The position numbers and the translations under genes are program-made. The notes beneath the pieces are model-generated. The model was not told the origin of the DNA. It was given only the letters and a program-made list of their open reading frames with translations, and made no database searches. A DNA stretch of 64,000 nt from Thermodesulfobacteriota bacterium (lineage in GTDB: Bacteria > Desulfobacterota_D > UBA1144 > Nemesobacterales > Nemesobacteraceae), in the NCBI GenBank assembly GCA_965204665.1, contig OZ242002.1:1285865-1349864 (forward strand). The letters run 5' to 3'. Positions within the stretch are counted from its first letter, which is position 1. Each line of letters begins with the position of its first letter. Shown here in pieces: positions 5,769 through 64,000 of this stretch.

Positions 5769-5778
5769 GGGGGGGGGG
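5769..5778. repeat. G10 homopolymer tract (C10 on the minus strand)
   Basis: Counted directly: ctgg+gggggggg. Lies between the AmiS-like gene terminator and the S41 peptidase promoter. Confidence 0.9.
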
Positions 5779-5785
5779 AGAATAG

Positions 5786-5822
5786 AAAAAAACAACAATG
5801 ACAGGATGAGAAACATCCTGTC
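5786..5822 (-). terminator. rho-independent terminator downstream of the AmiS/UreI-like gene
   Basis: Minus strand has GACAGGATG-ttctc-CATCCTGTC followed by attgttgTTTTTTT. Confidence 0.6.
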
Positions 5823-5851
5823 ATTGTCGCTGAATCTTTTAGACTAACACC

Positions 5852-11061: not shown

Positions 11062-12042
11062 ATGAGCCATAGTCATTTAAACGTCCCGTTGAAGTACTGG
11101 GAGTTGACGAAAGAGGTCCCGCCCCCTCCGATAGAGCGGGATATAAAGTCGTGGATCATAGCGAATCCGTCGGATCCGCTGTGGGACATAGATGTGCTGC
11201 CGTTGACGTATACGGACAGCAGGTGGTCGGCGTTCGTGGTGAGGTGCGACGAGGCGACGAGGAGTCGTCTGTGCCCGAATCCTCCGTTGGAGGTGTGGGA
11301 CGGGGAGAATGCCGATCTGGTGGAGTTCTGGTATGTGGATCATAAGAACACGATGCTGGGTCCGTATCTCGAGTTCGGAGTGACGATATCGGCGACATAC
11401 AAGGATCCTCAGGGCAATGTGTGGAAGGCGGGGTACTATCCGTATATGTATCTGACGGGTGATGCGCCGGTGGATGCTGGCAGGGTGCTTGGATTTCCGA
11501 AGAAGATGTCGTACATCAGATGTACGGTGCACGGCGGGGAGAAGGGGACGGACTTTTTCGGATTTGCGATGAGTCGTAACGGGTATCTGATGCACAGTGC
11601 GACGGGTCAGTTCGACGACAAGCAGGTTACGCCGCCGTTTTTCTACGGGAAGACGGATTGGGGCAAGTTCAACATGAAGGTTATAACGAGGCCCGACGTA
11701 TCGAGTTCGGAGTGGCAGTTGACGTATCTGCCGTCGGCGCTGCCGCCGCCGTTCGACACGATGATACAGGGGCACAGGTTCAAGATAAAGCCCGAGCACA
11801 CGAGGACTGCGTCGGGGGATGCGGTGAACTGGTTCATGCAGGCTACGCCGTTCGACAACATGGGGGCCGAGTTGAAGATACAGGAGGTTACGGGATTGAT
11901 ATCGTTCGTGTTCGATCTTGTGATACCGCCTGCGCAGGTGCTGTGGACGGAGACGTATGAGAGGCCGGCCAGTTACAGGGGTTATGCGACGCCGTACAAG
12001 TACGGGTTGAGGCAGCAGTTCCCGATAAGTCAGGGGTCATAA
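11062..12042 (+). CDS. acetoacetate decarboxylase (ADC) family protein, paralogue 1
   Basis: Shares the ADC signature with Clostridium ADC (VVPEP-like region, GNVWKAGYYPYMYLTGD, GFPKK). The Schiff-base lysine position is conserved. Confidence 0.75.
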   Translation: MSHSHLNVPLKYWELTKEVPPPPIERDIKSWIIANPSDPLWDIDVLPLTYTDSRWSAFVVRCDEATRSRLCPNPPLEVWDGENADLVEFWYVDHKNTMLGPYLEFGVTISATYKDPQGNVWKAGYYPYMYLTGDAPVDAGRVLGFPKKMSYIRCTVHGGEKGTDFFGFAMSRNGYLMHSATGQFDDKQVTPPFFYGKTDWGKFNMKVITRPDVSSSEWQLTYLPSALPPPFDTMIQGHRFKIKPEHTRTASGDAVNWFMQATPFDNMGAELKIQEVTGLISFVFDLVIPPAQVLWTETYERPASYRGYATPYKYGLRQQFPISQGS

Positions 12043-12074
12043 AAAGAAAGGAATTTTCAAGGAGGTAAGAAATA

Positions 12075-13046
12075 ATGGGATTACAAGCGAATGAGTACAG
12101 TTATCCGTGGTTGGACGAGGGAGAGGTGCCGCCGCTGCCGTTGGACAGGGACAGGATACACATAATAAGTCAGGGAGTGGCGGATCCCGTGTTCGACTAC
12201 GACATCGTACCGTTGACGTATACGGAGAGCAGATGGATGGCCTATGTGATAAGGGCTGACATCAATGCGATGAAGGCGGTGGTGCCGGAGCCGATAGAGG
12301 TTACGGATGACGTGATAGAGTTCTGGTACGTGATACATAAGAACACTATGCTGGGACCGTACATGGAGATGGGAGTGACGTTTTCCGCTACAGTGGATTC
12401 GGGGGACGGGCAGATATACAAGGCGGGGTACTATCCGTATATGTATCTGTCGAACGATTCGCCGATATTCGCGGGTAAGGAGCCGTTCGGGTTTCCGAAG
12501 AAGGCTGCGTACATAGCGGGATTCGAGCACGGAACCAACAACAATTATTTCAATCATCTGATGGAGCGCAGGGGATACATACTGCATACGGCGAACGGGC
12601 GTTATTCGGACAAGCCTTTGTCCGCGAGGCCGACGTTTTACGGCAAGACGGACTGGGGCAGGATGAATTACAGGATAACGACGAGGCCCGACGTATCGAA
12701 CAGCATCCACGAGGTGACGTATCTTCCGTCGGATCTTCCGCCGGGATTCGGGACGGGTCACAGGTTCCAGTTGAATCCCGAGAGTGTGAGGACGGCGGTG
12801 GGGGAGGATGTGCGTTCGTGGTATATGTCTGGGACGCCGTTCGACTATATGGGAGGTCAGATACCTGCGACGGAAGTTGTAGGGCTGATAAGTTTTACAT
12901 TCAATCTGATAATACCGCCTGCGTTGACGATCTGGAGCAGGACGGTGGAGAGGAGTACGGACGACATGAGTCATGTTGTGTATTCCACGCCGTTCGAGTA
13001 TACGATGCGTCACAGGTTCCTGCTGCCGCAGTACAGCCAGGGATAA
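12075..13046 (+). CDS. acetoacetate decarboxylase (ADC) family protein, paralogue 2
   Basis: AMKAVVPEPIEV, YKAGYYPYMYLSND and GFPKKAAY motifs; about 45-50% identical to paralogue 1; RBS AGGAGG. Confidence 0.75.
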   Translation: MGLQANEYSYPWLDEGEVPPLPLDRDRIHIISQGVADPVFDYDIVPLTYTESRWMAYVIRADINAMKAVVPEPIEVTDDVIEFWYVIHKNTMLGPYMEMGVTFSATVDSGDGQIYKAGYYPYMYLSNDSPIFAGKEPFGFPKKAAYIAGFEHGTNNNYFNHLMERRGYILHTANGRYSDKPLSARPTFYGKTDWGRMNYRITTRPDVSNSIHEVTYLPSDLPPGFGTGHRFQLNPESVRTAVGEDVRSWYMSGTPFDYMGGQIPATEVVGLISFTFNLIIPPALTIWSRTVERSTDDMSHVVYSTPFEYTMRHRFLLPQYSQG

Positions 13047-25716: not shown

Positions 25717-25894
25717 TTCGGTCAAGGCGTGGATGACGTTTTCACAGCCGGATGTCCTTTTCGGGTTTGCCCGATTGACTGAACCGGCTGCAGCATCCGA
25801 GTCCCTGCGTGGTTCCGACATGTATCCATCCCGAGTCAAGGTGGACGGTGCCCGCGCAGGTCGGAATCTCGACAAGTGTTTCTATCGGCACTGG
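25717..25894 (+). repeat. copy 1 of the TTCGGTCAAGGCGTG repeat family (non-coding)
   Basis: Aligned by eye to the copies at 46492, 49310(-) and 41235(-). Shared blocks: GGATGTCCTTTTCGG and GGTTCC...ATGTATCCA.CCCGAG...TCGGAATCTCGACAA. Confidence 0.6.
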
Positions 25895-26125: not shown

Positions 26126-27658
26126 TCAGTCTACAAACTCATACTTGTTCTGACTGATGATGTTTCCCGCCTTGTCGTTGTCCGCCGTGCTGCCTATCTG
26201 AACAACTTCAGTTCCTCCCACGGAAATCTTGCCGGCAGCGTTGGTCAACGCTCCGGCCCCAGCCGCGAAGCCCCTGAACTGAATCCTGTCGTCCGCCAAT
26301 GTGAAGTCCGTAATGATGTCCACACCGCCGTCGGCTTTTCTGATGAGGAAAGTGTCGTTTCCGGCTCCGCCGGTAAGGTTGTCGGCGCCTTCTTCACCTA
26401 TGAGAACATCATTCCCTGCTCCTCCGTCAAGAGTGTCGGTACCTTTACCGCCTCTGAGGGTGTCGTTCCCTCCTCTGCCTTCAAGAGTGTCGTCGGCGTT
26501 TCCTCCTCTGAGAGTATTCGCCTTGCCGTCCCCTTTAAAAGTAACGGCGGTAGTACGAGGACCGAACCTTGACACAGCAGTAAGGTTCTCGAAGTTGGAA
26601 GCAAAACTGGGAGGATTCGCAAGATCGAAGGTACTAAGCGCGTTACTGCCCCATGAAGCGGCAGTACTCCCACCAGCAATGAGATATGTACCTCCATACA
26701 CTACAAGGGTATCATTTCCCGGCCCGCCATCTGTTGTACCTGCTCCGGCGTTCCCGGTGGGTGGAGAGGGGTCGATTGTGTCATCTCCGGCTCCACCCTT
26801 TATAGTGTCGATACCGAACCATCCATCTATAATATTGTCTTTATCGTCTCCGATAATAGTGTCGTTACCGATACCGCCGACAACATCCTCAATACCCGTA
26901 ATTTTATCACTCCCATATGTAGCATGCGTCGAAGAGCCTAGGCTGAGGTCTACAGTATGACCCGCTGTAATGAAACTTGTGGGTGGGCGACTGGTGGTCC
27001 CGGGTGCAAGAGGAGGAGCAAAAACCAGCCTGTCATGGTCTCCGGCACCACCGATAAACGTATCGTCACCCGGGTCGGTAATGAGAAATTCATCATTACC
27101 GGGTCCGCCGTAGATCGTATCATTACCGGGTCCGCCGTAGAAAAACCCCCTCCCCTTTCCACCGTAGAGAGTGTCATTTCCGTCTCCACCCCGGAAATGG
27201 TCGTTCCCGTCTTCGCCGTAGAGAGTGTCATCGCCGTTCTCACCGTAGAGCAGATCATTACCTCCTCCGCCGTAAACAGTATCATCACCATCACCGGCTT
27301 TAATGTCGTTGATGTATTGATTTCCGCAGATGACATCGTCATCCGCAGTTCCCGTGACATCATCGGAGACACCGGGAAGCGCATTTATACCGTTGCTGAC
27401 GTCGCATCTGGGATCACCGAAGGACTTTCCCGGATCTCCCTGCAGACCCGTCGCTCCCGGTGCTCCCGAGTCTCCTTTATCTCCCTTATCCCCCTTATCT
27501 CCTTTCGCCCCGTCTTTCCCTGCCGGTCCCGCAGGCCCCATGTCTCCTTCACAGGCGGCAAAGAAAACCGCTCCGCCGAGCAGAAACAACAAAACTAAGA
27601 AATTACGTAATTTCATAATACAACCTCCTTTGATAAGATGTTTTTTATTAATAAGCAA
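26126..27658 (-). CDS. lipoprotein with collagen-like Gly-X-Y repeats and RTX (hemolysin-type calcium-binding) nonapeptide repeats, paralogue 1
   Basis: Signal peptide plus lipobox (LFAAC). GPAGPAGKDGAKGDKGDKGDKGD collagen-like region. Many GGxGNDxxY repeats. Confidence 0.8.
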   Translation of the reverse strand: MLINKKHLIKGGCIMKLRNFLVLLFLLGGAVFFAACEGDMGPAGPAGKDGAKGDKGDKGDKGDSGAPGATGLQGDPGKSFGDPRCDVSNGINALPGVSDDVTGTADDDVICGNQYINDIKAGDGDDTVYGGGGNDLLYGENGDDTLYGEDGNDHFRGGDGNDTLYGGKGRGFFYGGPGNDTIYGGPGNDEFLITDPGDDTFIGGAGDHDRLVFAPPLAPGTTSRPPTSFITAGHTVDLSLGSSTHATYGSDKITGIEDVVGGIGNDTIIGDDKDNIIDGWFGIDTIKGGAGDDTIDPSPPTGNAGAGTTDGGPGNDTLVVYGGTYLIAGGSTAASWGSNALSTFDLANPPSFASNFENLTAVSRFGPRTTAVTFKGDGKANTLRGGNADDTLEGRGGNDTLRGGKGTDTLDGGAGNDVLIGEEGADNLTGGAGNDTFLIRKADGGVDIITDFTLADDRIQFRGFAAGAGALTNAAGKISVGGTEVVQIGSTADNDKAGNIISQNKYEFVD

Positions 27659-27692: not shown

Positions 27693-27720
27693 ATTCTACC
27701 CCCCCCCTAACTAAGTCAAG
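27693..27720 (-). promoter_or_regulatory. sigma70-like promoter with a G9 tract in the spacer (TTGACT-tagtta-G9-TAGAAT); candidate phase-variable switch
   Basis: Read directly on the minus strand. Spacer is 15 nt, so G11 would give the optimal 17 nt. ATG lies 35 nt downstream with an AGGAGG RBS. Confidence 0.55.
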
Positions 27721-27879
27721 GACAGATGCCTGACCACATATCTGACCGAGTTGAGAATCAGACTTGATTTCGGATGTTCTTGAGCGTGGAGGTGAGTTTT
27801 CGGCCGGACGGTCAAAACAACTCGCCCATTAAACTTCAAAAACAGGTGGATTTTTCTGGAAGTTCAGGAGACCCGTAAT

Positions 27880-28407
27880 CCTCTGCCGGAGACGGCGGAA
27901 TATCCGCAGCGGGTCGACTACGAGTACGAGCGGGCCGGCACGGCGACGCTGTTTCTGTTCTGCGAACCGCCGGCGGGTTGGAGAGCGGTGAATGTCCGCC
28001 CGAGACGTACGAAGCGGGACCGGGCGCAGGAGGTGGCGGACCTGCTGGAAGGTCGCTATGCGGATTGTGAGAGGATAACGTCGGTGCCGGACAACCTCAA
28101 CACGCACAAGCCGGGGGCGTTCTACGAGACCTTCAGTCCGGAGAGGGCGGAACGATTGATGAGGCGCATCAAGTTCTGTTATACGCCGAAGCACGGCAGT
28201 CGGCTGAATACGGCCGAGTGTGAATTAAGTTGTATGACACGGCAGTGCCTGCAGGAGCGGCGTATCGGGGATTCGGAAGAATTGAGGAAAGAGGTGACTG
28301 CGTGGTTCACGAGCGTGAATGCGGGTCAGCGCGGTGTGAGCCGGCATATGACAGTCGCTGATGCCCGTTGTAAACTCAAGTACATCTATCCGAAAAACGT
28401 TGTATGA
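27880..28407 (+). pseudogene. truncated IS630-family transposase (C-terminal ~175 aa only)
   Basis: DYEYERAGTATLF ... PDNLNTHK ... FCYTPKHGSRLNTAECELS motifs of the IS630/Tc1 DDE transposase. The N-terminal half is missing. Confidence 0.6.
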
Positions 28408-31292: not shown

Positions 31293-31769
31293 TCATTTGC
31301 TTGCGTAGTGAGGACAAAGCTGGCTGATCTTCAAGCACAGACGTTTCATTAAAGAATCTTGTTGCCGCCAGTCGCTGTCCGTCGCGTTCAGCACAACCGC
31401 ATTCGCTTTCACTGCTACCGCAAGAAATTTCCGGTCGCTCGGGTCAAAGTTGTTTCGGGGCAACTCTTCAAAACTTCTCCGGTCATCCTCCGACGGAGTA
31501 ATGACAACTCTCCGTACGCGGCCATTCGGCAAGTGTTGGTTATCCCATAGATATTTGAAAAACATGTCACCTACTCCCGGTTTGCCGGAGAGAGACAGGT
31601 GATTTCTATATTCTTCGATGATCAACCCTCTTTCATCGACCGCTACAGTTTCTCTCTCGACCACTTCCTGCAATTTTTCCACGCAGCTCAGTTGACATTT
31701 AAAGTCAATATTTTCGTTGCCGCCGTTAGCCACGACGGCAACATTGGTATCAACGACAAATACATTCAT
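31293..31769 (-). CDS. PIN-domain nuclease
   Basis: FVVDTNV (Asp7), acidic residues around 38-40, and DRKFLAVAVKANAVVLNATDSDW (Asp112, Asp131/133). The start codon overlaps the stop of the upstream ATPase gene. Confidence 0.65.
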   Translation of the reverse strand: MNVFVVDTNVAVVANGGNENIDFKCQLSCVEKLQEVVERETVAVDERGLIIEEYRNHLSLSGKPGVGDMFFKYLWDNQHLPNGRVRRVVITPSEDDRRSFEELPRNNFDPSDRKFLAVAVKANAVVLNATDSDWRQQDSLMKRLCLKISQLCPHYASK

Positions 31770-33139
31770 CAGGAATGTCCTATTCTTCTTTTCAAAGAAG
31801 CTTTGGCTATAGCTGCTACTTCTCCCATTTCATCGCCGAAGAAATTCTTCGGCCAGTTCTCCACCTCTCCCCACTCATTGAGGGACAGATCGGAAATCTG
31901 CGCTTTATGTCCTCTAGTCGATACAAAATACAATTTGATGTTCTCCGGAGATTCCTTTCCCTCTGCCACCCTGCGCTGCAGGCGGCGCAACAGATATTCG
32001 CTATGGCTTTCCACGATGATTTGCACATCTCGGACATTGGAAACTTCCAACATCAGATCTGCAAGTCCGCTCTGCACTGCAGGATGGAGATGTATCTCGG
32101 GTTGTTCCATCAGCACAGTGGAGCCTTCCGGGACATAGTAAAGAAGTACCAACGCCGGCAGAACTTGCGATACGCCGAATCCAACATCGGTTAATGCGGT
32201 TTGCGGACTTGACCTGGATGTCTTCACGATTGCCCTGTACAGATTAGTTCCCTCGGAGATCTCCTCGATGCTGAATTCGTGAATAAGCCCCAGTTTTTTG
32301 AGCCAGTGTGCGATCACTTCCTGAAATGTTTTTTCTGGATAATATTTGATACGTTTCATTTCTTTATTGCGGGTAGCGGCGAGAATCGCTTCGACCGTGC
32401 GTTCACCTCGTTGTCCGACATCGCAGGGGCCGGAACCGGCCCAATTATATTGTCGTTGCGGATATTCCCGCAGAGGACCGAGGTAGTAGATGGAGTCCAT
32501 CAAATTTTCGTATTCCCACTCGAAAAGATTCAGAAACTCGGCGTTCTGATAGTGAAAACGCATGTCCGGAAACAGGTGTGTCTTGATCGGGCGGGGAATA
32601 GTGTTTGCTTGACCTTTGTTGCGTACGAATTCAAAATCGTCAGCAGTTGTCTTCAGGTCGAATTCATTATCCGACCTAGGCTTGGATTTCAACCGGAAAT
32701 CCGCCCCGGCGAACCTGTAGGCTAACTCATATGTCCAAGGAAGGTCGTTCTTCATGCCGACCTGGCATCGAGTCTGAAGAGAGTTACCTTTCAGTTGAGG
32801 GATGGAAGGTCCGGTCTGCATGTTCATCTCTCTCATCATGTCTGAGAGTTCGAGAGTATCGGATAACGACCAGTCAAGGAGCCAGCCGATCCGCTTTTTT
32901 TCATCATGAAGGTGCACTATATCACGAAAGGACCTGAGGCTTACTAAGTCGGAAGGACCTCCGAAATGGAGCACCAACCGGCGGTCTGTCGCATTCTTGG
33001 TCTGTTTAAGCAGGAGTAGAAATTGTAGAAGACTGCTCTTGCCCGCACTGTTTGTGCCGAAAAATCCGGTTACTTTTCCGAATCGTATGTCCGCTTCCTT
33101 CCACGCCTTGAAATTTGAGAGTTGCAGTTTGTTTATCAT
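31769..33139 (-). CDS. ABC-type AAA ATPase (AAA_15/AAA_21-like) with a C-terminal DUF3696-like motif
   Basis: Walker A GTNSAGKSS. Walker B / D-loop VLMEQPEIHLHP. H-loop ESHSE. C-terminal WPKNFFGDE. Confidence 0.7.
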   Translation of the reverse strand: MINKLQLSNFKAWKEADIRFGKVTGFFGTNSAGKSSLLQFLLLLKQTKNATDRRLVLHFGGPSDLVSLRSFRDIVHLHDEKKRIGWLLDWSLSDTLELSDMMREMNMQTGPSIPQLKGNSLQTRCQVGMKNDLPWTYELAYRFAGADFRLKSKPRSDNEFDLKTTADDFEFVRNKGQANTIPRPIKTHLFPDMRFHYQNAEFLNLFEWEYENLMDSIYYLGPLREYPQRQYNWAGSGPCDVGQRGERTVEAILAATRNKEMKRIKYYPEKTFQEVIAHWLKKLGLIHEFSIEEISEGTNLYRAIVKTSRSSPQTALTDVGFGVSQVLPALVLLYYVPEGSTVLMEQPEIHLHPAVQSGLADLMLEVSNVRDVQIIVESHSEYLLRRLQRRVAEGKESPENIKLYFVSTRGHKAQISDLSLNEWGEVENWPKNFFGDEMGEVAAIAKASLKRRIGHS

Positions 33140-41099: not shown

Positions 41100-41235
41100 C
41101 CGGGAGCTCGGCCGCTGTGACAGGCACGAACAATTCGGCAAGTCCGAAAAGGACATCCGTTCGCTTCCGCTTCGGATGAACCGGAAGCGAACCGTCAACG
41201 GGGCTGAAAACGACCCGGTCCGTCATCAATTACCG
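41100..41235 (-). repeat. partial copy 4 of the TTCGGTCAAGGCGTG repeat family
   Basis: Contains TCCGAAAAGGACATCCG, flanking similarity to copies 1 and 3, and the GTTTTCAGC block. Confidence 0.45.
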
Positions 41236-41243
41236 GTCCGCTA

Positions 41244-42242
41244 CTAGCCTTGCGGGGCAGCGAAGGCCGTCAGATGAACGACGGTATCGTCGGCCACAAG
41301 TGCGCCGCCGACCAGTTTCTCTCCTGTTATACCCACATCACGGCCGAGCCCGACGGCAGGATGGTCGTCGAATGAACCGTCGAGGATACGGTCAAGGAAT
41401 GCCTGGGAATCATATTCCAGTGATTTCTCCTGGTCTCGGGGGCTGTTTCTCAACGCGTCGATAGCGTAACTCCGCACCAACTTCGGAAGTAGTGCGGCGA
41501 ATGTTTCAGGCTGGTCGAAAAGGTCCAGTCCGCAGCATCTGTTCTTCACAACGAAAACAGCCCCGACTTGGGTTGGAACGGCCTGCACCGATTCGACATA
41601 GTCATTGAGGGTTTTCCTGTGTCTGTCGAACATCGCGTGCATAGCCCCGGTTGGAGATGACGCGTCCAGATTCCTCATCTCTTCAGCCAGTGAATCCCAG
41701 ACTCGCCCTTGGTTGGACCGACGGTGCCCGCGGCGCATTGATTCTCGAACATCGGCCAGGTTTTCCGACCGACCCCGCACGGTTGAGATGTAGTCAGTTG
41801 TGTCGAAATCGGTTTTTCTGCGAGACTGTGCCTGTCGCCGCTCCTCCGAGCCGCCGTGGTCATCCATGCTGGAGACGGTCTCTCTTCTATAATGCCACCG
41901 GCCGGATTCTACGCATGAGACGGGAATTTTTGTTTCTTGGTTTGCCGCAATGAGCATGGTGAGGTTTGCAATTCGGTTCTGCTTGGCGCCGGCAAGTTCC
42001 TCTCCATCAACTATAAGTACCGGTAAATCGGCGTAGTTCTTAACGACAAGTTCCGGCACGCTACCGCTCTCGGACACTTCCTCAATTTTGACGAGATTTT
42101 TCTGCAGACCGTCACCCAAGAGCAGGTAGCGAAGAGAACTGGTATGTTTCGAAGTCAGCGGAAAGACGGACAACTCACCGTATGTTGTCGGTTCCTCTGA
42201 CTCCAGACTGGAAATCGTGGTTTTGATTTGATCCAATTTCAC
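41244..42242 (-). CDS. hypothetical protein encoded with the vWA protein (unknown family)
   Basis: 332-aa ORF with very high GC codon usage and its own AT-rich upstream gap; no family recognised. Confidence 0.5.
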   Translation of the reverse strand: MKLDQIKTTISSLESEEPTTYGELSVFPLTSKHTSSLRYLLLGDGLQKNLVKIEEVSESGSVPELVVKNYADLPVLIVDGEELAGAKQNRIANLTMLIAANQETKIPVSCVESGRWHYRRETVSSMDDHGGSEERRQAQSRRKTDFDTTDYISTVRGRSENLADVRESMRRGHRRSNQGRVWDSLAEEMRNLDASSPTGAMHAMFDRHRKTLNDYVESVQAVPTQVGAVFVVKNRCCGLDLFDQPETFAALLPKLVRSYAIDALRNSPRDQEKSLEYDSQAFLDRILDGSFDDHPAVGLGRDVGITGEKLVGGALVADDTVVHLTAFAAPQG

Positions 42243-42494
42243 TTCCTCCTTAAATGTGTAATTTTTACTTGTATTGGTTTTACTTCTGATCTTTATGTCT
42301 GACCGTATAGAGCATCAGACATGACAGCTAATCGCGATTGGAAATGCCTGAATGGATTGATCAGGTCGGGTCCATCCGGACATTTCATAACTGCTCAACT
42401 ATCGCCAGGCGGACTGCGCAAGAATGTATCCGATTCCCTTTGCTGCAATCCCGTTCGGTCCTTAGGAACTCCAGGGCATCTTAACAGCCGGTCG

Positions 42495-43823
42495 TCATTC
42501 ACCGCGTTCCATTCGAGTACTCCAGCTGTCTCTCATACCCCTGTGGTCTGCCCGACTGTTCCTGCTCTGATACGACTGATTCACCATCTCCTTGTGCATC
42601 CGCGGTGAAAACCTGCGGTCGACACGGCGCGCGAGCATCTCGAGTTCACGCACCATATCATTCCCCCGGTCAAGACCCCTCGCGTAACGACGGAAATAAT
42701 GCAGCTCCCGCTGAACATATTCCTTCGCCTCGGAATATGCTCCGTCCCGATTCATCCGAGACGCAGTGAGAACGACATCCGCGCTCCACATCCTCGCCAC
42801 TACTTCGGCAGTCTTCATGTCGCGCGGCTGATAGTTGTTGACCCTGCTGTCGGCGGCAACCAGACCGACCGTCTTCGGACCGGCCTCAAGAATGCGTCGA
42901 TCCCCGACGGAACTCGCTCTTGTCGACAGTTCAAACTCCAACACGTCTTTGGCCTTTCCGCCCGGACAGGTTACTTTGAAGACGGCGACCCGCTCTATGC
43001 CGTTCTGAATCGGCCCGAGCCGGACGAGAACGGAGTCGTCGCGAAGAACGGAGTTCTCTCTGCCCAGCGCATCGACCCGTACACCCGCAGGAAATGTCAG
43101 AGTCACCTCCGCATCCTCGACCACCGTGTTGTAGATGTCTCCGAGTTCACCCAGAAGAACGGTTGAAATTTCACCGGCGTGCTCCACATCGTGCAGACGC
43201 CCTCCTCCGTTCTCGGCCATGCCCCTCAACAGATGCTCGTCGTATCCGGCACCTATACCGAGAGCGGAAGTGAATACTCCCCGCTTTCTGAATTCACCGG
43301 CATGCTCTCTGAGTTCCGCAGGGTCCGTTATACCTGCATTGGCGTGGCCGTCGCTCAGTATGATCACGCGCGGCGTCATGCGGGCATCCTCTTCCGCCAC
43401 CCGAGCCGTGCACTCGACCCCGGCAAACCACCCCTCGGACAGTGCGGTCGAACCTCGGGTTCGCAGCCGTAAAATCTCTTCGCGTATCCGGTCCGCATTT
43501 TCCCCGCTCGCCTGCACCGCGTCGAGATGTATCCGAACATCGGATGCGAAAGAGACCAGGGTGATCCGGTCCCTGTCCGTCAGATGCCCGGTCAGACCGA
43601 CCGCCGCTTCCTTGGCCGCTTCAAGCTTTCCACCGCCCATCGACCCGCTCGCATCCATCACAAGAGCTATGTTGACGGGCATCTCCTCTCCGGAAACGCC
43701 GTCTTCCCCGCTCCGCGCCTCGAGTCTCGCAACGAGATAACGCACGGAATCTCCACCCTGCCAGTAGAATTGCCGGTCGAAGCCGGCTTCCGCAGTAAAA
43801 TTCACATCAGTCATTCTTTCCAC
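42495..43823 (-). CDS. von Willebrand factor type A (vWA) domain protein
   Basis: MIDAS motif VMDASGSMGG...LSDGHANAG, plus a ~250-aa C-terminal region. Confidence 0.8.
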   Translation of the reverse strand: MERMTDVNFTAEAGFDRQFYWQGGDSVRYLVARLEARSGEDGVSGEEMPVNIALVMDASGSMGGGKLEAAKEAAVGLTGHLTDRDRITLVSFASDVRIHLDAVQASGENADRIREEILRLRTRGSTALSEGWFAGVECTARVAEEDARMTPRVIILSDGHANAGITDPAELREHAGEFRKRGVFTSALGIGAGYDEHLLRGMAENGGGRLHDVEHAGEISTVLLGELGDIYNTVVEDAEVTLTFPAGVRVDALGRENSVLRDDSVLVRLGPIQNGIERVAVFKVTCPGGKAKDVLEFELSTRASSVGDRRILEAGPKTVGLVAADSRVNNYQPRDMKTAEVVARMWSADVVLTASRMNRDGAYSEAKEYVQRELHYFRRYARGLDRGNDMVRELEMLARRVDRRFSPRMHKEMVNQSYQSRNSRADHRGMRDSWSTRMERGE

Positions 43824-44499
43824 CTCCTGTTAGAATGGCGCGGAACTGGTCCGCAAGTTGTTCAAAAAGAATCCGCTCCCGAGGCTCGAGTTCCCCTCGA
43901 ACAGAGATCTCGAAGGCGGATGTTACGGATATTCTCGTCCAGACTTCACCCCGCGAGTGCCGGGGCGCAGAGTCTCCCAGTATCTTCTCCAACTGAAAAA
44001 TCAACCATTCAATGCTCGTCAATTCGTTCCCGCCCGGTTCGGACCGCCCGGTTCTGCGGAACTTTATCGACCTCCGGTTCAGACCCCGTTCCGAAAACGG
44101 TGCTTCCGATACATCTCCGTACGGCTCCCGCCGGGTGGTGGAATCCGTTGCGGACCGGGTCGACCCGGTAGAAGTGCCTCCCGCCCGAATCCTGCTCAGA
44201 TAATCGCGGGCAGACCCGGGCGGCGCTGAAGTCAGACCGATTCCGGTCGCCCACTCCCTGATCTGTTCTTCGGTCGCCCTGATGAACAACTGCCCGATTT
44301 CGGACAACGACAACCCCCGATGTTTTTTGAGCGCCCTGACCGCCGCCGCGCGGTCCGCGTTGCTGCTCGGATAGCGCGCTCCCCGGCCGGGCCTGAAGGG
44401 CGGAGCCAGCAGTCCCTCGCTGATCCACGAACGCAGAGTACGGACCTCGACGCCGGTACGTCTGCTGAGCTCTTCGATTGTGAGTCGATCATCATTCAT
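43807..44499 (-). CDS. MerR-family transcriptional regulator with a low-complexity C-terminal half
   Basis: N-terminal HTH LTIEELSRRTGVEVRTLRSWISEGLL; overlaps the vWA gene start by 17 nt. Confidence 0.7.
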   Translation of the reverse strand: MNDDRLTIEELSRRTGVEVRTLRSWISEGLLAPPFRPGRGARYPSSNADRAAAVRALKKHRGLSLSEIGQLFIRATEEQIREWATGIGLTSAPPGSARDYLSRIRAGGTSTGSTRSATDSTTRREPYGDVSEAPFSERGLNRRSIKFRRTGRSEPGGNELTSIEWLIFQLEKILGDSAPRHSRGEVWTRISVTSAFEISVRGELEPRERILFEQLADQFRAILTGGGKND

Positions 44500-44968: not shown

Positions 44969-46491
44969 GAGTTATTGTCAAATCTGGTGTTTGCGTGATC
45001 AAGCGGCGCTCCAGTTATTTGAATTCTCCTCTTCGTTTTCCTGATTTATATCCTCAATTCCATCTTTGGATTTCACACCTGTTATCACTTTTCCTACGAA
45101 GTCGAATCCGTTGAGCCTTCGCCAGTTGTTCTCCGCACACATCCCCAACTTGAAGATCATGTGCAGCATTCCCTCGGAATTCAGACACCCTTCAGCTCTC
45201 CTGGTTCTGTGCCGTATGGTTCCGAAGGAGGACTCTATCGGATTCGTCGTCCTTATGCTTCTCCAGTGCCGAGCTGGAAAATCGTAAAAGGCCGGAAGTT
45301 GCTCACGGTCCCTCTCCAAACATCCGGCAGCCTTCGGATATTTGTCCCCGTACATCCTTATGAACAGATCAAAAGCCTTCCGCGCTTCCTCCTTCGTCTC
45401 AGCCTGCCGGATGTCATGCAGGCACCTCTTCGCTTTTCTCCGGGAAGTCTTCGGAAGACAGTTCAGCACATTCGCCGTCTTATGTACCCGGCAACGCTGC
45501 TCCCGCGTCTCCCCGTAAACTTCAGGAAGCGCAGACCAAAACCCTGGAGCTCCGTCACCGATTGCAAGCTTCGGCTCTTCCATCCCGCGAGCCTTCAGGT
45601 CCGACAACACTTCGCGCCGACTCTGCTTTGATTCCCCGACTCCGTTTTCAATGGAAAGGAAGTGCTTCTTCCCGCTCTGATCCACCCCTATCACCACCAG
45701 CGTGCACAACCCGGGATCATCTCCCCGCACCTTGCTGTGTATACCGTCCACCCGGATGTAAGCCCGGTCGTGGCCGCTGAGGTCTCTCCTGCGCCGTTTA
45801 TCGTATTCCTCAGCCCACTTGCGCTTGAGCCTGGATACCGTAGCCGCGGAAAAACCCCGAGCCTCGGGGCCTATAAGGGCTTCCAATGCGGACTTTATGT
45901 TCCCCGTGGACAATCCCTGCAGGTAAAGCCAAGACAGAGACGATTCAAGTTTCGCAGCCTTGCGTACGTACGGAGGCACAATAGCCGAACGGAACACGGC
46001 AGGCTGACCGTCTCTTGATCTCACTTCGGGTATGCGTACCGATACAGGACCTATACCCGTCTGCACATCCCGTTCCGGGTGGTATCCGTTACGAATCACC
46101 GCGGCCCTGCCGTCTTCGAGTTGTCTGTCGTTCCGGGACTGCAGGTATGCTTCCGACTCCATTTCGATTGCGGAAACCAAGAGAAGCCGAGCTGACTTCC
46201 TCAACAGATCACTGAGGTCATCGCAACACTGTTCAGGACTGCCGAATCCGGAGTCCGGTCGTCTCTGAGTGCGGGACCCGTCAATTACTGTTTGAGAGTT
46301 CTTCCCGAAGAACTTTGTAAAAATGTTTTCCAATGAATCAAAAAGCTCTTTTTGACCTTCACGGTCAAAAACTTTATATTTTCTGCCCATAGCGGCGTAT
46401 CCTCCTGTAATTGGAATTTTGGTGAATTCAAATTAACCGGATACGCCGCTTTTTTTCAAAACCTGCTGAACACCAGATTAGAGCATAACTC
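44969..46491 (-). mobile_element. intact IS256-family insertion sequence (~1.52 kb) with imperfect terminal IRs and a 9-bp target-site duplication
   Basis: IRs GAGTTATTGTCAAATCTGGTGTT and GAGTTATGCTCTAATCTGGTGTT. Direct repeat AGCGTTCGG sits immediately outside both ends (about 44960-44968 and 46492-46500). Confidence 0.75.
44999..46390 (-). CDS. IS256-family (Mutator-type) transposase
   Basis: 463 aa; DDE region with CRVHKTANVLNCLPK and NPIESSFGTIRHRTRRAEG motifs. Confidence 0.85.
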   Translation of the reverse strand: MGRKYKVFDREGQKELFDSLENIFTKFFGKNSQTVIDGSRTQRRPDSGFGSPEQCCDDLSDLLRKSARLLLVSAIEMESEAYLQSRNDRQLEDGRAAVIRNGYHPERDVQTGIGPVSVRIPEVRSRDGQPAVFRSAIVPPYVRKAAKLESSLSWLYLQGLSTGNIKSALEALIGPEARGFSAATVSRLKRKWAEEYDKRRRRDLSGHDRAYIRVDGIHSKVRGDDPGLCTLVVIGVDQSGKKHFLSIENGVGESKQSRREVLSDLKARGMEEPKLAIGDGAPGFWSALPEVYGETREQRCRVHKTANVLNCLPKTSRRKAKRCLHDIRQAETKEEARKAFDLFIRMYGDKYPKAAGCLERDREQLPAFYDFPARHWRSIRTTNPIESSFGTIRHRTRRAEGCLNSEGMLHMIFKLGMCAENNWRRLNGFDFVGKVITGVKSKDGIEDINQENEEENSNNWSAA

Positions 46492-46548
46492 AGCGTTCGG
46501 TCAAGGCGTGGTGAATGAACATTTTCAGCGGTTGAGGATCTGCACCTC
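46492..46548 (+). repeat. copy 2 (5' part) of the TTCGGTCAAGGCGTG repeat, interrupted at its first bases by the IS256 insertion
   Basis: AGCGTTCGGTCAAGGCGTGGTGAATGAACATTTTCAGCGGTTGAGGA aligns to copies 1 and 3. Confidence 0.55.
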
Positions 46549-46706: not shown

Positions 46707-48005
46707 TCAGTCTGTAAATTTATACAGGGTCGGTGTCTCACGGATTGCTTTTGCTGTGGCGTCATCCTGCACATCAACTACATTGTCTGATCCTATGGTG
46801 ATCGTGCGACCCGACCCTGTCAACGTAGACCCTTTCGGAAAACCTCTGAACTCAATTATATCTTTCTGCGATGCGTTGAAGTCCGTAATAGTATCCTTGG
46901 AGCTTCTGGTCACGTGTCTGATTAGAAAGGTGTCGGCACCGGCACCACCTGTAAGATTATCAGCACCGTACTGTCCATCGAGCAGATCATTTCCGGCTTT
47001 TCCGTCAATCGTATCATTTCCATTTACCCCGATGAGATGATTTCCCAGGGCATCTCCGCTGATGGTATCGTTGCCGTGTCCAGCATAAATGTTCTCGATA
47101 CCTTCAAATGTAATCACTCCCCAACCATGAGCAGTGCCGTCAAAAGACCCCGTGGAAAGATCAATGGTTATAGCTGTCCCCACATTTCCGAAAATGGGCA
47201 ACAAAAATTGCTTCATTCTCGGCACTACACTACCTACACCGACAATTCCACCTAGGACCAGAAAATCACCATTACTATTATTACTAACAGCAGTCCCTGT
47301 CGGGGCGCCGCCGTTAAAGCTGTCATTGCCTGGTTCATTGATGTAAAAAATATCCATCCCGGCTCCGCCGTTGAGCGTATCATTGCCTTCGTCGCCATAG
47401 AGTGCGTCGTTTCCCGCATCGCCGTTGATCGTATCATCGCCGCCTGCTCCCCGGATGTAATCAGTTCCGTCTCCGCCGTAGATGGTGTTGGCGCCGGCGG
47501 TGGCCCAGATTGTATCATCTCCGTCTCCACCGTAGATGATGTCGTCGGTAGTTCCCGAGAGGTTGCCGTCAAGATGAGCATCAATGTGGTCATCTCCGTC
47601 TTCACCATATATCGTATCCGTGCCGTCACCGCCGCCTATCTTGTCGTTTCCGGCACCGGCGTAAACAGTATCATCGCCGTCTCCGGCATTAATCGTGTTT
47701 TTGTACTGATTTCCGCATATGACATCGTCGTCATCAGTCCCCGTGATATCATTGGAGATACCGGGCAGCGCATTTATACCGTTGCTCACGTCGCATCTGG
47801 GGTCACCGAAGGACTTTCCCTGACCCCCTTGCTGGCCCGGGTTTCCTTGATCTCCTTTTGCCCCATCTTTTCCTGGTGTTCCCGGATCTCCTTTCGGACC
47901 TTGAGGACCTGCCGGTCCAGCCGGACCCGTATCACCTTCACAGGCAGCAAAGAAAACCGCTCCGCTGAACAGAAACAATAAAACTAAGAAATTACGTAAC
48001 TTCAT
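46707..48005 (-). CDS. lipoprotein with collagen-like and RTX calcium-binding repeats, paralogue 2
   Basis: Same signal peptide plus lipobox, GPAGPAGPQGPKGDPGTPGKDGAKGD region, and RTX nonapeptides. Confidence 0.8.
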   Translation of the reverse strand: MKLRNFLVLLFLFSGAVFFAACEGDTGPAGPAGPQGPKGDPGTPGKDGAKGDQGNPGQQGGQGKSFGDPRCDVSNGINALPGISNDITGTDDDDVICGNQYKNTINAGDGDDTVYAGAGNDKIGGGDGTDTIYGEDGDDHIDAHLDGNLSGTTDDIIYGGDGDDTIWATAGANTIYGGDGTDYIRGAGGDDTINGDAGNDALYGDEGNDTLNGGAGMDIFYINEPGNDSFNGGAPTGTAVSNNSNGDFLVLGGIVGVGSVVPRMKQFLLPIFGNVGTAITIDLSTGSFDGTAHGWGVITFEGIENIYAGHGNDTISGDALGNHLIGVNGNDTIDGKAGNDLLDGQYGADNLTGGAGADTFLIRHVTRSSKDTITDFNASQKDIIEFRGFPKGSTLTGSGRTITIGSDNVVDVQDDATAKAIRETPTLYKFTD

Positions 48006-48047: not shown

Positions 48048-48074
48048 ATTCTACCCCCCCCCTTACTAAGTCAA
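48048..48074 (-). promoter_or_regulatory. promoter with a G9 spacer tract (TTGACT-tagtaa-G9-TAGAAT), second copy
   Basis: Same architecture and 15-nt spacer as the promoter at 27693-27720. Confidence 0.55.
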
Positions 48075-48149: not shown

Positions 48150-48900
48150 TTCATGTACTGTAAGAGTGTTACTTCGACAAACGCACCGGCCGCCGGGTTG
48201 GACAACGGCTCGGAGACCAGGGTTTGGATTTTTCACCGGGAACCCTGATGGAGAGTATGAAGCGGATGCTGCTCCTGTTCAAGCCGATCTATGACGCGAT
48301 TCTCGCCCGTTCCAGCGCATATAAATGAAGATGGCCGGAGAGTCTGCCGGCAAAGTGATACTGTGCTTCTGCCGGGCGCATGTAGGAAGATATTTCATAG
48401 ATTGCGCGGCGAGTCATCCGCATCTTGAACCGTGGCGTGAAAAATATCCTGATCTCATCGGAGGTATTTATCGACTGTACAGAGAGAGGCTCAAGTACTA
48501 TGTTGCGGGGTGCAGGTCCTCGGACTTTGAACGGGTGCAGAGCAAACTGGAAGATGCGGTCGGCGGTCTGTTCACCGAAGCCGAGAGTGAGTTGGAAGGA
48601 CCGGCAGAAGATGAAGTCGCCGCGCCCGCTGATTCAGCATCACGAGGGGGCTGAGCATGTTCATTGATCAACCTCGGGTGCCTATGGACAACAACACGGC
48701 GGAGAGGTCTCTGCGCAGGGCTGTCATAGGACGCAACTGAGCTTCGGTTCAGACAGCATGGAAGGAGCTGAAATAACTGCAGTGATCCGCTCGGTGCTGG
48801 AACGGTCAGGGATAACGGTATTGATGTGCTTCGATGGTTGGAGGCATGGTTGACCGCATGTGCGGAAAACGGTCGGAAACCTCCGGATGGTCCGGTACCA
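48150..48900 (+). pseudogene. degraded IS66-family transposase (TnpC) fragment, frameshifted
   Basis: LCFCRAHVGRYFIDC (IS66 CWAHxRR motif), IGGIYRLYRERLKYY, and in another frame FIDQPRVPMDNNTAERSLRRAVIGR. Confidence 0.55.
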
Positions 48901-49098: not shown

Positions 49099-49310
49099 CC
49101 GGTGCTGATGGAAACGTTTGTCGAGATTCCGACATAAAAGGGCACGGTCTACCGTGCCTCGGGGTGGATACATGCAGGAACCACCAAAGGACGCGGACGT
49201 TACGACCGGTACAGGAAATCCGAAAAGGACATCCGGCTGAAACCGCTTCGCAGGAACTGGAGACAAGTTCTCGACCGCTGAAAACGCTCATTCAACACGC
49301 CTTGACCGAA
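49099..49310 (-). repeat. copy 3 (most complete) of the TTCGGTCAAGGCGTG repeat family
   Basis: Reverse complement begins TTCGGTCAAGGCGTGTTGAATGAGCGTTTTCAGCGG and ends ...GTTTCCATCAGCACCGG. Internal hairpin GGCACGGtagaCCGTGCC. Confidence 0.6.
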
Positions 49311-63756: not shown

Positions 63757-63929
63757 CCGTTCGGCTTCGGTCGCGAGGTCGGGTTTAGTTTTTCTAGAAA
63801 ATTCTTGACAAATGGAAACTTACTGTGATAAGGTTATATGCGATGGAGCCGGAGGGTTTCTATTATCAGTGCGGATTAGCAATTTTACATCATACTGACG
63901 AAATTATTTTACAGAGGAGGTTGTATTAT

Positions 63930-64000
63930 GAAATTACGTAATTTTTTAGTGTTGTTGTTTTTACTTAGCGGAGCGGTTCTCTTCGCGGCTTGTGAGGGGG
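63930..64000 (+). CDS. 5' end of a third RTX/collagen-like lipoprotein paralogue (runs off the window)
   Basis: MKLRNFLVLLFLLSGAVLFAACEG is nearly identical to the N-termini at 27658 and 48005. RBS GGAGG. No G tract in its promoter region. Confidence 0.7.

Follow-up and report, generated by a model that had tools for sequence, protein, structure and literature searches.

The DNA analysed here is a 64,000-nucleotide stretch of contig OZ242002.1 (positions 1,285,865 to 1,349,864, forward strand; assembly GCA_965204665.1, Thermodesulfobacteriota bacterium), hereafter the window. Three of its genes, here named P1, P2 and P3, are members of a large multigene family, with about 30-50 genes dispersed in two small uncultured Dadabacteria-like genomes. 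Based on the organization of these genes, we propose a contingency family whose products would be trimeric surface proteins that carry a lipid anchor and bind calcium. Slippage in poly-G would switch each gene on its own, and recombination and insertion sequences (IS) would diversify the family; we hold this reading to be probable, if by no means secure. Each gene is an autonomous cassette that extends from the -35 box through the terminator, with a poly-G tract separating the -35 hexamer (TTGACT) from the -10 hexamer (TAGAAT or TAAACT). Slipped-strand mispairing would add or remove Gs and so alter the length of the spacer, and any such change would shift the gene concerned, independently of the others, into or out of the 16-18-nt range of sigma-70. 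The expected outcome would be a combinatorial on/off variation of the surface coat. The bodies of the proteins would diversify via segmental gene conversion, while IS insertion into or beside promoters would add a further layer of inactivation and rearrangement. Evasion of host recognition, phages or grazers, variable adhesion, or both, would be the likely purpose. A first-pass annotation of the window, which had described the genes as a rapidly evolving lipoprotein family, missed the poly-G tract between -35 and -10, our main candidate for a variation device.

How large is the family and where is it found? Three genes spread by local duplication had been the initial picture, and this picture does not hold at the scale of the genome. 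The window's own contig (1,980,752 bp) contains at least 27 further family clusters, and the genome at least 29 copies. A sister chromosome, OZ220467.1, from a metagenome-assembled genome (MAG) also named Thermodesulfobacteriota bacterium (2,386,527 bp), contains 50 family loci. The scan behind this count compared an N-terminal family profile with one genome per species, 185,579 species in total, and all 50 loci that it retrieved lie on this one chromosome, at spacings of 3.7-326 kb around the whole circumference. In place of a local array we observe copies scattered around the chromosome among housekeeping genes, the neighbours of the window genes and of their paralogues including ilvD, metG, rseP, dxr, dnaG, rpoD, glyQS, purEK and ppk/ppx. 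We estimate that 30-50 copies would make up about 2-3% of a 2-Mb genome. Three of the 50 sister copies are truncated. Apart from both genomes and a small number of strain contigs obtained from their two samples, no member was found in the 185,579 species genomes or in the Joint Genome Institute (JGI) metagenomes, where the N-terminal profile yielded signal-peptide-plus-collagen look-alikes only and zero true members. A profile search with a 125-residue N-terminal alignment retrieved short proteins only, namely three truncated family members followed by generic collagen-like proteins, and outside the family the only matches were unrelated collagen-like lipoproteins. The literature that could be searched yielded no description of this family. 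P2 is 100% identical to the database protein P0019 and the IlvD of the window is 100% identical to P0121, both of which are encoded on the 1,980,752-bp contig and so mark it as the source of the window; the nearest named relatives of IlvD are from 'Candidatus Dadabacteria' and Thermodesulfobacteriota MAGs, at 78-79% identity.

Paralogues do not occupy conserved sites when the two genomes are compared. Between a BBP2 gene and a helix-turn-helix (HTH) gene, the window's species has a family gene where the sister carries nothing but a tRNA-like sequence, in regions that are otherwise syntenic (L067 versus L002; fmt-amt-BBP2 ... HTH-...-pilM). This difference shows lineage-specific gain or loss of family copies. 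Together with mosaic similarity and a number of Gly-X-Y (GXY) triplets that varies from 8 to 16, such presence or absence at one syntenic site supports the rapid evolution that had been suggested at the outset. Two other proteins are worth recording beside the family. P0016 (493 aa, encoded on a 6,039,457-bp contig of a much larger genome) is a full-length relative with 43% identity; its N-terminus is similarly hydrophobic, another residue stands in place of the lipobox Cys (...FFAAREG), and a collagen-like segment is lacking. This protein may represent an outgroup or an ancestor-like form. In the window's species, a smaller and different RTX protein of 299 aa (L001:4535-5434, minus strand), with an ordinary signal peptide and without lipobox or collagen-like segment, adjoins a family member.

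The promoters are the core of the argument. The P1 promoter (27693-27719, minus strand) consists of TTGACT (27714-27719), TAGTTA, a run of nine Gs (G9, 27699-27707) and TAGAAT (27693-27698). The P2 promoter (48048-48074, minus strand) repeats this arrangement with TTGACT (48069-48074), TAGTAA, G9 (48054-48062) and TAGAAT (48048-48053). In both cases the spacer is 15 nt, one G short, and the two genes are predicted to be silent but poised. A sigma-70 promoter scan that required a spacer of 16-18 nt called neither promoter, because G9 gives a 15-nt spacer. Runs of nine Gs are uncommon in this DNA: the window contains four overlapping matches at three sites, and 0.42 matches were expected from shuffles. 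The same layout with exactly G9 is present in seven out of seven promoters of the window's lineage, that is P1, P2 and five others of the same species, carried on four low-coverage contigs from another sample. In the sister genome, 44 of the 50 copies have TTGACT followed by 3-9 variable bases, a tract of G10-G16 and TAAACT, TAAAAT or TAGAAT. Spacers of 19 nt are the commonest there (25 copies), followed by 20 nt (8), 18 nt (7), 21 nt (2) and one copy each at 17 and 22 nt. Most copies in both genomes are therefore placed just outside the functional spacing, one step below it in the window's species and one above it in the sister. Hexamers that are conserved at a spacing that is mostly off-range are expected of contingency genes that are mostly silent and poised. 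A difference in tract length between close relatives is seen at an orthologous locus of two strains that co-occur in one metagenome (L029/L086): the sequences share 99.64% identity over 5.3 kb, with 17 substitutions and two indels, and one of these indels is G13 versus G12 in the promoter.

Some further features of the upstream regions can be set beside these promoters. The third G-run site of the window is an orphan G10 at 5769-5778 (plus strand), which is followed by AGAATAG and a strong hairpin at approximately 5796-5830; there is neither a TTGAC box upstream nor a family gene downstream. The orphan run may be the relic of a family promoter, possibly left after an IS event or a deletion. 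Sister leaders (L003-L052) contain, about 95 nt upstream of the ATG, a conserved perfect palindrome, CCATTTATAAATGG, either an operator-like site or a hairpin. The leaders of the window are unlike those of the sister, and P1 has AAGTCTT-ATGAC-AAGACTT. Rfam identified no known RNA in the window, and the conserved leaders match no described family.

The coding sequences show what the promoters would control. The open reading frames (ORFs) at 26126-27658 and 46707-48005, both on the minus strand, exist as first annotated, and only the extent of the former needs correction: translation of P1 probably begins with the ATG at 27616, which is preceded by GGAGG 7 nt upstream as in the paralogues, and not with the TTG at 27658. 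P1 is then encoded by 26126-27616 (496 aa plus stop) and comprises a signal peptide, a collagen-like stalk, a Cys-box and an RTX beta-roll. P2 (46707-48005; 432 aa plus stop) has the same architecture. The third gene is also genuine, with its start at 63929 on the plus strand, one nucleotide before the position first given; the end of the window cuts P3 after its first 24 codons (MKLRNFLVLLFLLSGAVLFAACEG..., 63929-64000). P3 directly follows the rpoD terminator, and its upstream region (63790-63928, plus strand) provides a leader longer than that of other copies. The proteins P1 and P2 are 48% identical overall, with the first ~110 residues nearly identical. This value rejects the idea that they are duplicates created by the assembly, and the two are diverged paralogues, as the first-pass annotation had assumed. 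Their 3' flanks (P1, 26005-26125; P2, 46585-46706; both minus strand) are homologous with 79% column identity and contain three hairpins each (z = -3.2 and -4.5), the last of which is the terminator. The terminator stems differ by paired substitutions (ACCCGGG...CCCGGGT versus ATCCGGG...CCCGGAT), so that the duplication of the flanks with compensatory stem changes, already noticed on first inspection, is borne out. A further terminator-like hairpin with a T-run lies inside the signal-peptide codons (LLGGAVFF; P1 27568-27595, P2 47957-47972, minus strand); it may arise incidentally from the codon sequence, or it may contribute to the unusually high DNA conservation at this place.

What is the unit that has been multiplied? 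Mean pairwise DNA identity among 42 full-length paralogues of the sister genome amounts to 80% in the 140 nt upstream of the start codon, which hold promoter and leader, and to 88% in the signal-peptide codons, the most conserved part of the gene. It is 53-57% in the collagen-like segment, Cys-box, body and C-terminus, 53% in the first 120 nt downstream of the stop codon, and 25-33% outside the cassette on either side. This profile indicates that the repeated unit is a self-contained expression cassette whose 5' end is homogenized. The duplicated unit runs exactly from the -35 box to the terminator, and its boundaries are not IS ends. Within the body of P1 the closest paralogue switches every 40-80 residues, in the order P0018 (39/40), P0001, P0003, P0004 (40/40) and P0002 (39/40); between these near-identical stretches are segments without a close match, at ~55% identity. 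This mosaic pattern in the sequence indicates segmental gene conversion as its probable origin. Comparison of one paralogue in two strains revealed 12 substitutions in the ~85-nt leader and 8 across the next 4 kb.

Signal peptide, collagen-like stretch and RTX repeats, which the genes were thought to share, are all confirmed. The N-terminus MKLRNFLVLLFLLGGAVFF-AAC has a basic n-region and a hydrophobic core ahead of the lipobox; in P1 the signal peptide and lipobox (MKLRNFLVLLFLLGGAVFFAAC, Cys22) are encoded by 27551-27616 (minus strand). A lipobox of the PROSITE PS51257 type, taken as [LVI..][ASTVI][GAS]C with Cys at positions 15-35, is present in 97 of 98 family members, with the Cys at position 21-22 and boxes that read FVAC, FAAC, FIAC or LAAC. 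Cys22, Cys71 and Cys97 are invariant in the family. Cys22 is followed by Glu-Gly, then by the GXY triplets and then by a conserved GDPRCDVSNGI...DDDVICGN box that holds the two other invariant cysteines. The collagen-like segment of P1 (residues 24-65; 27422-27547, minus strand) contains 14 uninterrupted Gly-X-Y triplets and that of P2 contains 12, the median of the family being 14; X is mostly Pro, Asp or Ala and Y mostly Ala, Asp or Lys. The Pfam Collagen match is borderline: P1 scores 28.2 bits and P2 26.9 bits at a cut-off of 27.2. The segment of P1 includes a 9-nt tandem unit that encodes (KGD)n (27471-27502, minus strand; 3.6 copies in Tandem Repeats Finder); this coding repeat had been singled out for its potential to expand or contract, and while it is indeed present, such instability would be a minor feature of the family. 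The Cys-box (Cys71, Cys97) and the RTX beta-roll head of P1, which ends with a conserved C-terminus ...KYEFVD, are encoded by 26129-27409 (minus strand), and the RTX repeats match Pfam HemolysinCabind with E values of 4e-40 (P1) and 9e-35 (P2).

An AlphaFold2 model of P1, computed from a 51-sequence family alignment, has a mean predicted local distance difference test score (pLDDT) of 84.7 and a predicted template modelling score (pTM) of 0.79. In this model the signal peptide is helical, the GXY segment is disordered, and one continuous beta-roll extends from about residue 70 to 496, over most of which pLDDT exceeds 90. Disorder of the GXY segment is expected in a monomer model, because such a segment folds only as a trimer. 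The family profile matches the RTX domain of CyaA, serralysin and, through the GXY part, animal collagen chains in the PDB. The best Foldseek matches are the RTX blocks of Bordetella CyaA, followed by the C-terminal domains of serralysin and lipase; fold matches to RTX S-layer proteins, RsaA among them, are weak, and matches to Scl in NCBIfam are weak as well. A serralysin-like capping region (GGAGNDTF...DxIxDF) and an acidic/aromatic C-terminus, YxF(T/V)D, are conserved. Genes for type I secretion (ABC transporter, membrane fusion protein, outer-membrane factor of the TolC-like kind) were found neither in the window nor in the annotated loci of other paralogues, and a link to this pathway was rejected for the present on that ground. 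The architecture, as read from the sequence, points to a Sec-exported lipoprotein processed by signal peptidase II (SPII), and lipidation is predicted. We picture a lipid-anchored, presumably trimeric 'stalk and head' protein of the surface coat. SPII-type processing would leave a lipid-modified Cys22, and ~14 Gly-X-Y triplets would form a trimeric collagen-like stalk of ~12 nm, as calculated from 42 residues. Above the stalk a neck with two invariant cysteines would lead to a putative calcium-binding RTX beta-roll head of 300-430 residues, and three lipid anchors would hold the stalk that bears the RTX heads. Surface exposure and a role as adhesin or antigen, also part of the first reading of this DNA, are likewise best regarded as presumptive.

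Mobile elements are recurrent neighbours of the family genes. An IS630-type remnant (27829-28407, plus strand; DDE_3 at 27988-28407, E 4e-10) lies about 110 nt upstream of the P1 promoter, and an intact IS256-type transposase (44999-46390, minus strand; Transposase_mut, E 2e-64) lies 3' of P2; both had been named from the outset. The IS66 remnant reported 5' of P2 has the standing of a possible one, as its match to DDE_Tnp_IS66 (48325-48654, plus strand) has an E value of 0.002, below the Pfam cut-off. P1 and P2 are also surrounded by several short, repeated remnants that resemble transposases. One short repeated element, whose copies are 72-90% identical and occur in both orientations (25749-25894, 41107-41185, 46496-46536 and 49099-49310), is situated near P1, near P2 and at one other site, and a similar sequence is found in L001; by eye, one of its frames resembles the C-terminal end of an integrase-type transposase, and Pfam gave no hit. 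The recurrent association of IS elements and family genes is confirmed in the sister genome, where 23 of 45 loci have an ORF of the IS66, IS4-like or IS630 type no more than 2.5 kb away. Intact IS66 copies flank 11 sister paralogues, and IS630 elements of the same family are also found beside sister paralogues. The most direct contact between element and promoter emerges from two loci that are strain variants of each other, L064 and L065. In L065 a 2,443-bp element (L065:446-2888) sits inside the poly-G tract, so that -35 and -10 are parted. Its transposase is of the DruA-like, DDE_Tnp_1_assoc and DDE_Tnp_1 kind, and its ends are CAGGAC...GCCCTG. The uninterrupted tract of L064 is G13; in the interrupted one G10 flanks the element at one end and G12 at the other, from which a target duplication of nine Gs is deduced. 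Four loci of the sister genome, L008, L016, L031 and L033, have copies with 97-99% identity directly beside the tract, some in one orientation and some in the other, and L003 has a more diverged end of the same kind. This IS appears to prefer promoter G tracts as targets.

How well does slippage-driven switching stand up to the evidence? Several observations weigh against it. On/off switching is predicted from the architecture of the promoters, and in the window's lineage the seven tracts show no variation in length whatsoever; a uniform G9 could mean that the element is constrained rather than hypermutable. The off-range spacers of most copies in both genomes could instead reflect promoters that depend on an activator. 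The G13/G12 difference between strains, as well as part of the G10-G16 spread, could include homopolymer errors of long-read sequencing. Upstream of P3 a TTGACA is retained and the poly-G is absent, with unrelated sequence in its place; P3 may be a non-switching member of the family. On the side of the protein, 14 GXY triplets make a short run for a triple helix that is to be stable, and RTX domains normally leave the cell unfolded via type I secretion, not via Sec. In addition, surface exposure of a lipoprotein in a diderm would need a dedicated route, and none has been identified.

The main alternative, which we consider unlikely, yet deserving of attention, is that the poly-G is a fixed regulatory or structural element, such as a rigid spacer or the site of a dedicated activator that makes up for the abnormal spacing, and that its differences in length result from slow neutral drift or sequencing noise. 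It would account for the retention of G9 in all seven promoters of the window's lineage despite divergent flanking bases, for the clustering of sister copies at a single spacer (19 nt in 25 of 44), and for the fact that over-long 19-nt spacers are typical of activator-remodelled promoters of the MerR type. Less easily accommodated are the span from G10 to G16 among promoters that are otherwise 80% identical and the change in tract length between two 99.6%-identical strains. The spacers also flank the optimum on opposite sides (15 versus 19 nt), which is hard to reconcile with one activator mechanism, and G runs of nine or more are hypermutable in other bacteria (PMC3899988). MerR-type control, which the 19-nt spacers of the sister and the MerR gene at 43807-44499 had brought to mind, was set aside as a candidate, since it cannot explain the 15-nt spacers of the window. 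A different objection concerns the proteins themselves, which could be ordinary RTX exoproteins or S-layer-type proteins released by type I secretion, with an N-terminal hydrophobic segment that is no lipoprotein signal. The RTX repeats, the serralysin-like cap, the conserved YxF(T/V)D end and the presence of RsaA among the weak fold matches speak for this view. We regard it as improbable in light of the textbook n-region, h-region and lipobox with the Cys at 21-22 in all but one of 98 members, of a signal segment that is the most conserved part of the gene, and of the lack of ABC transporter, membrane-fusion and TolC-like genes beside the three window genes or the annotated paralogue loci.

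Lastly, the whole family could be a largely non-functional repeat, passively amplified by IS in a small, IS-rich and degenerating genome, and without any adaptive role in variation. IS elements or their remnants do flank P1, P2 and about half of the sister loci examined, a few sister copies are truncated and several promoters are split by IS. This is nonetheless the least probable of the three accounts: about 94% of copies keep full ORFs, cysteines, RTX motifs, hexamers, ribosome-binding sites and terminators, and the duplicated unit is bounded by the -35 box and the terminator and not by IS ends. We continue to favour a contingency family switched by poly-G slippage. A broader proposal, which we put forward as possible rather than probable, is that an uncultured, IS-rich Dadabacteria-like lineage with a small genome, possibly animal-associated, runs one of the largest known simple-repeat contingency systems, with 30-50 independently switchable poly-G promoters, a novel protein made of lipid anchor, collagen stalk and RTX head, and layered variation through gene conversion and tract-inserting IS.

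Other loci of the window are mentioned briefly. A three-gene cluster on the minus strand (41244-44499) encodes the MerR-family regulator (43807-44499), a von Willebrand A protein and an ARPP-1 domain protein, and may be a conflict or defence module. At 31293-33139 (minus strand) an ATPase with AAA_15/AAA_21 and DUF3696 domains and an adjoining small ORF look like an abortive-infection or defence-type pair. Two tandem, diverged acetoacetate decarboxylase-like (ADC) paralogues are located at 11062-13046 (plus strand), with DNA repeats that are 72-78% identical.

What would be the implications of such a family? To our knowledge, nearly all known cases of on/off surface variation through homopolymers in promoters come from pathogens adapted to a host, for example Neisseria, Haemophilus, Bordetella and Mycoplasma. 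If our model is correct, the strategy is used beyond these model organisms of medicine, presumably to counter phages, grazers or an invertebrate host, and programmed surface variation in the style of pathogens would extend to an environmental or symbiotic phylum without cultured members. As tract lengths can be read from long reads, the family would offer a testable handle on symbiont-host and phage-host arms races in metagenomes. A Sec-exported lipoprotein that carries an RTX beta-roll on a collagen-like stalk would be a new protein design, and IS elements that insert into G tracts would provide a further case of mobile elements acting on switch regions.

The comparison with described systems concerns both the switch and the protein. 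In the Mycoplasma hyorhinis Vlp system each gene has its own homopolymeric tract between -35 and -10, and the genes are switched on and off independently and in combination. The family described here shares with Vlp the placement of one homopolymeric tract per gene in the -35/-10 spacer, from which comparable switching is surmised. The Vlp tract is poly-A and serves 3-8 genes in one cluster of a mycoplasma, whereas here the tract is poly-G, the 30-50 copies are dispersed, the organism is a diderm, environmental or symbiotic, Dadabacteria-like bacterium, and the product combines a collagen-like stalk with an RTX beta-roll. No search revealed any relation to mycoplasma proteins by sequence, and the resemblance to Vlp is one of analogy and not of membership. 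For porA of Neisseria meningitidis, expression is high with G11, medium with G10 and absent with G9. The last state matches the predicted 'off' condition at G9 (15 nt) here; porA is a single porin gene, in contrast to the multigene family described here. One G more or less in the porA tract, which occupies the -35/-10 spacer, alters the spacing and hence transcription (PMC3899988). The principle of spacer repeats is also established for hifA/B of Haemophilus influenzae and for surface proteins of Bordetella pertussis and M. hyorhinis, and contingency promoters of the PorA and Vlp type are marked by strong hexamers whose spacing is non-permissive (PMC3899988). In addition, both Vlp and the present family join a conserved cassette of promoter, leader and signal peptide to mature regions that are divergent and internally repetitive (PMC3899988, and references in PMC11868660).

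As regards the protein, Scl1/Scl2 of Streptococcus pyogenes and BclA of Bacillus anthracis have in common with this family an uninterrupted Gly-X-Y run with Pro-rich X and charged Y, located between anchor and head. Their runs are much longer than the 8-16 triplets found here, and they are anchored by LPXTG or in the exosporium basal layer in place of the N-terminal lipid. The present head is an RTX beta-roll, and all scores fall far below the cut-offs of those families, so that the present proteins are no members. With the RTX domain of CyaA and the C-terminal domains of serralysin and lipase the family shares arrays of GGxGxD nonapeptides and a parallel beta-roll; canonical RTX proteins are without an N-terminal signal peptide and leave by type I secretion, whereas these genes have no adjacent secretion genes and specify a Sec/SPII signal. 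The regulatory principle, exemplified by PorA and Vlp, and the individual domains are already known. What is new is that a lipobox, a collagen-like stalk and an RTX beta-roll are combined, that there are 30-50 dispersed copies, that the setting is an uncultured Dadabacteria-like lineage and that IS insert into the tracts.

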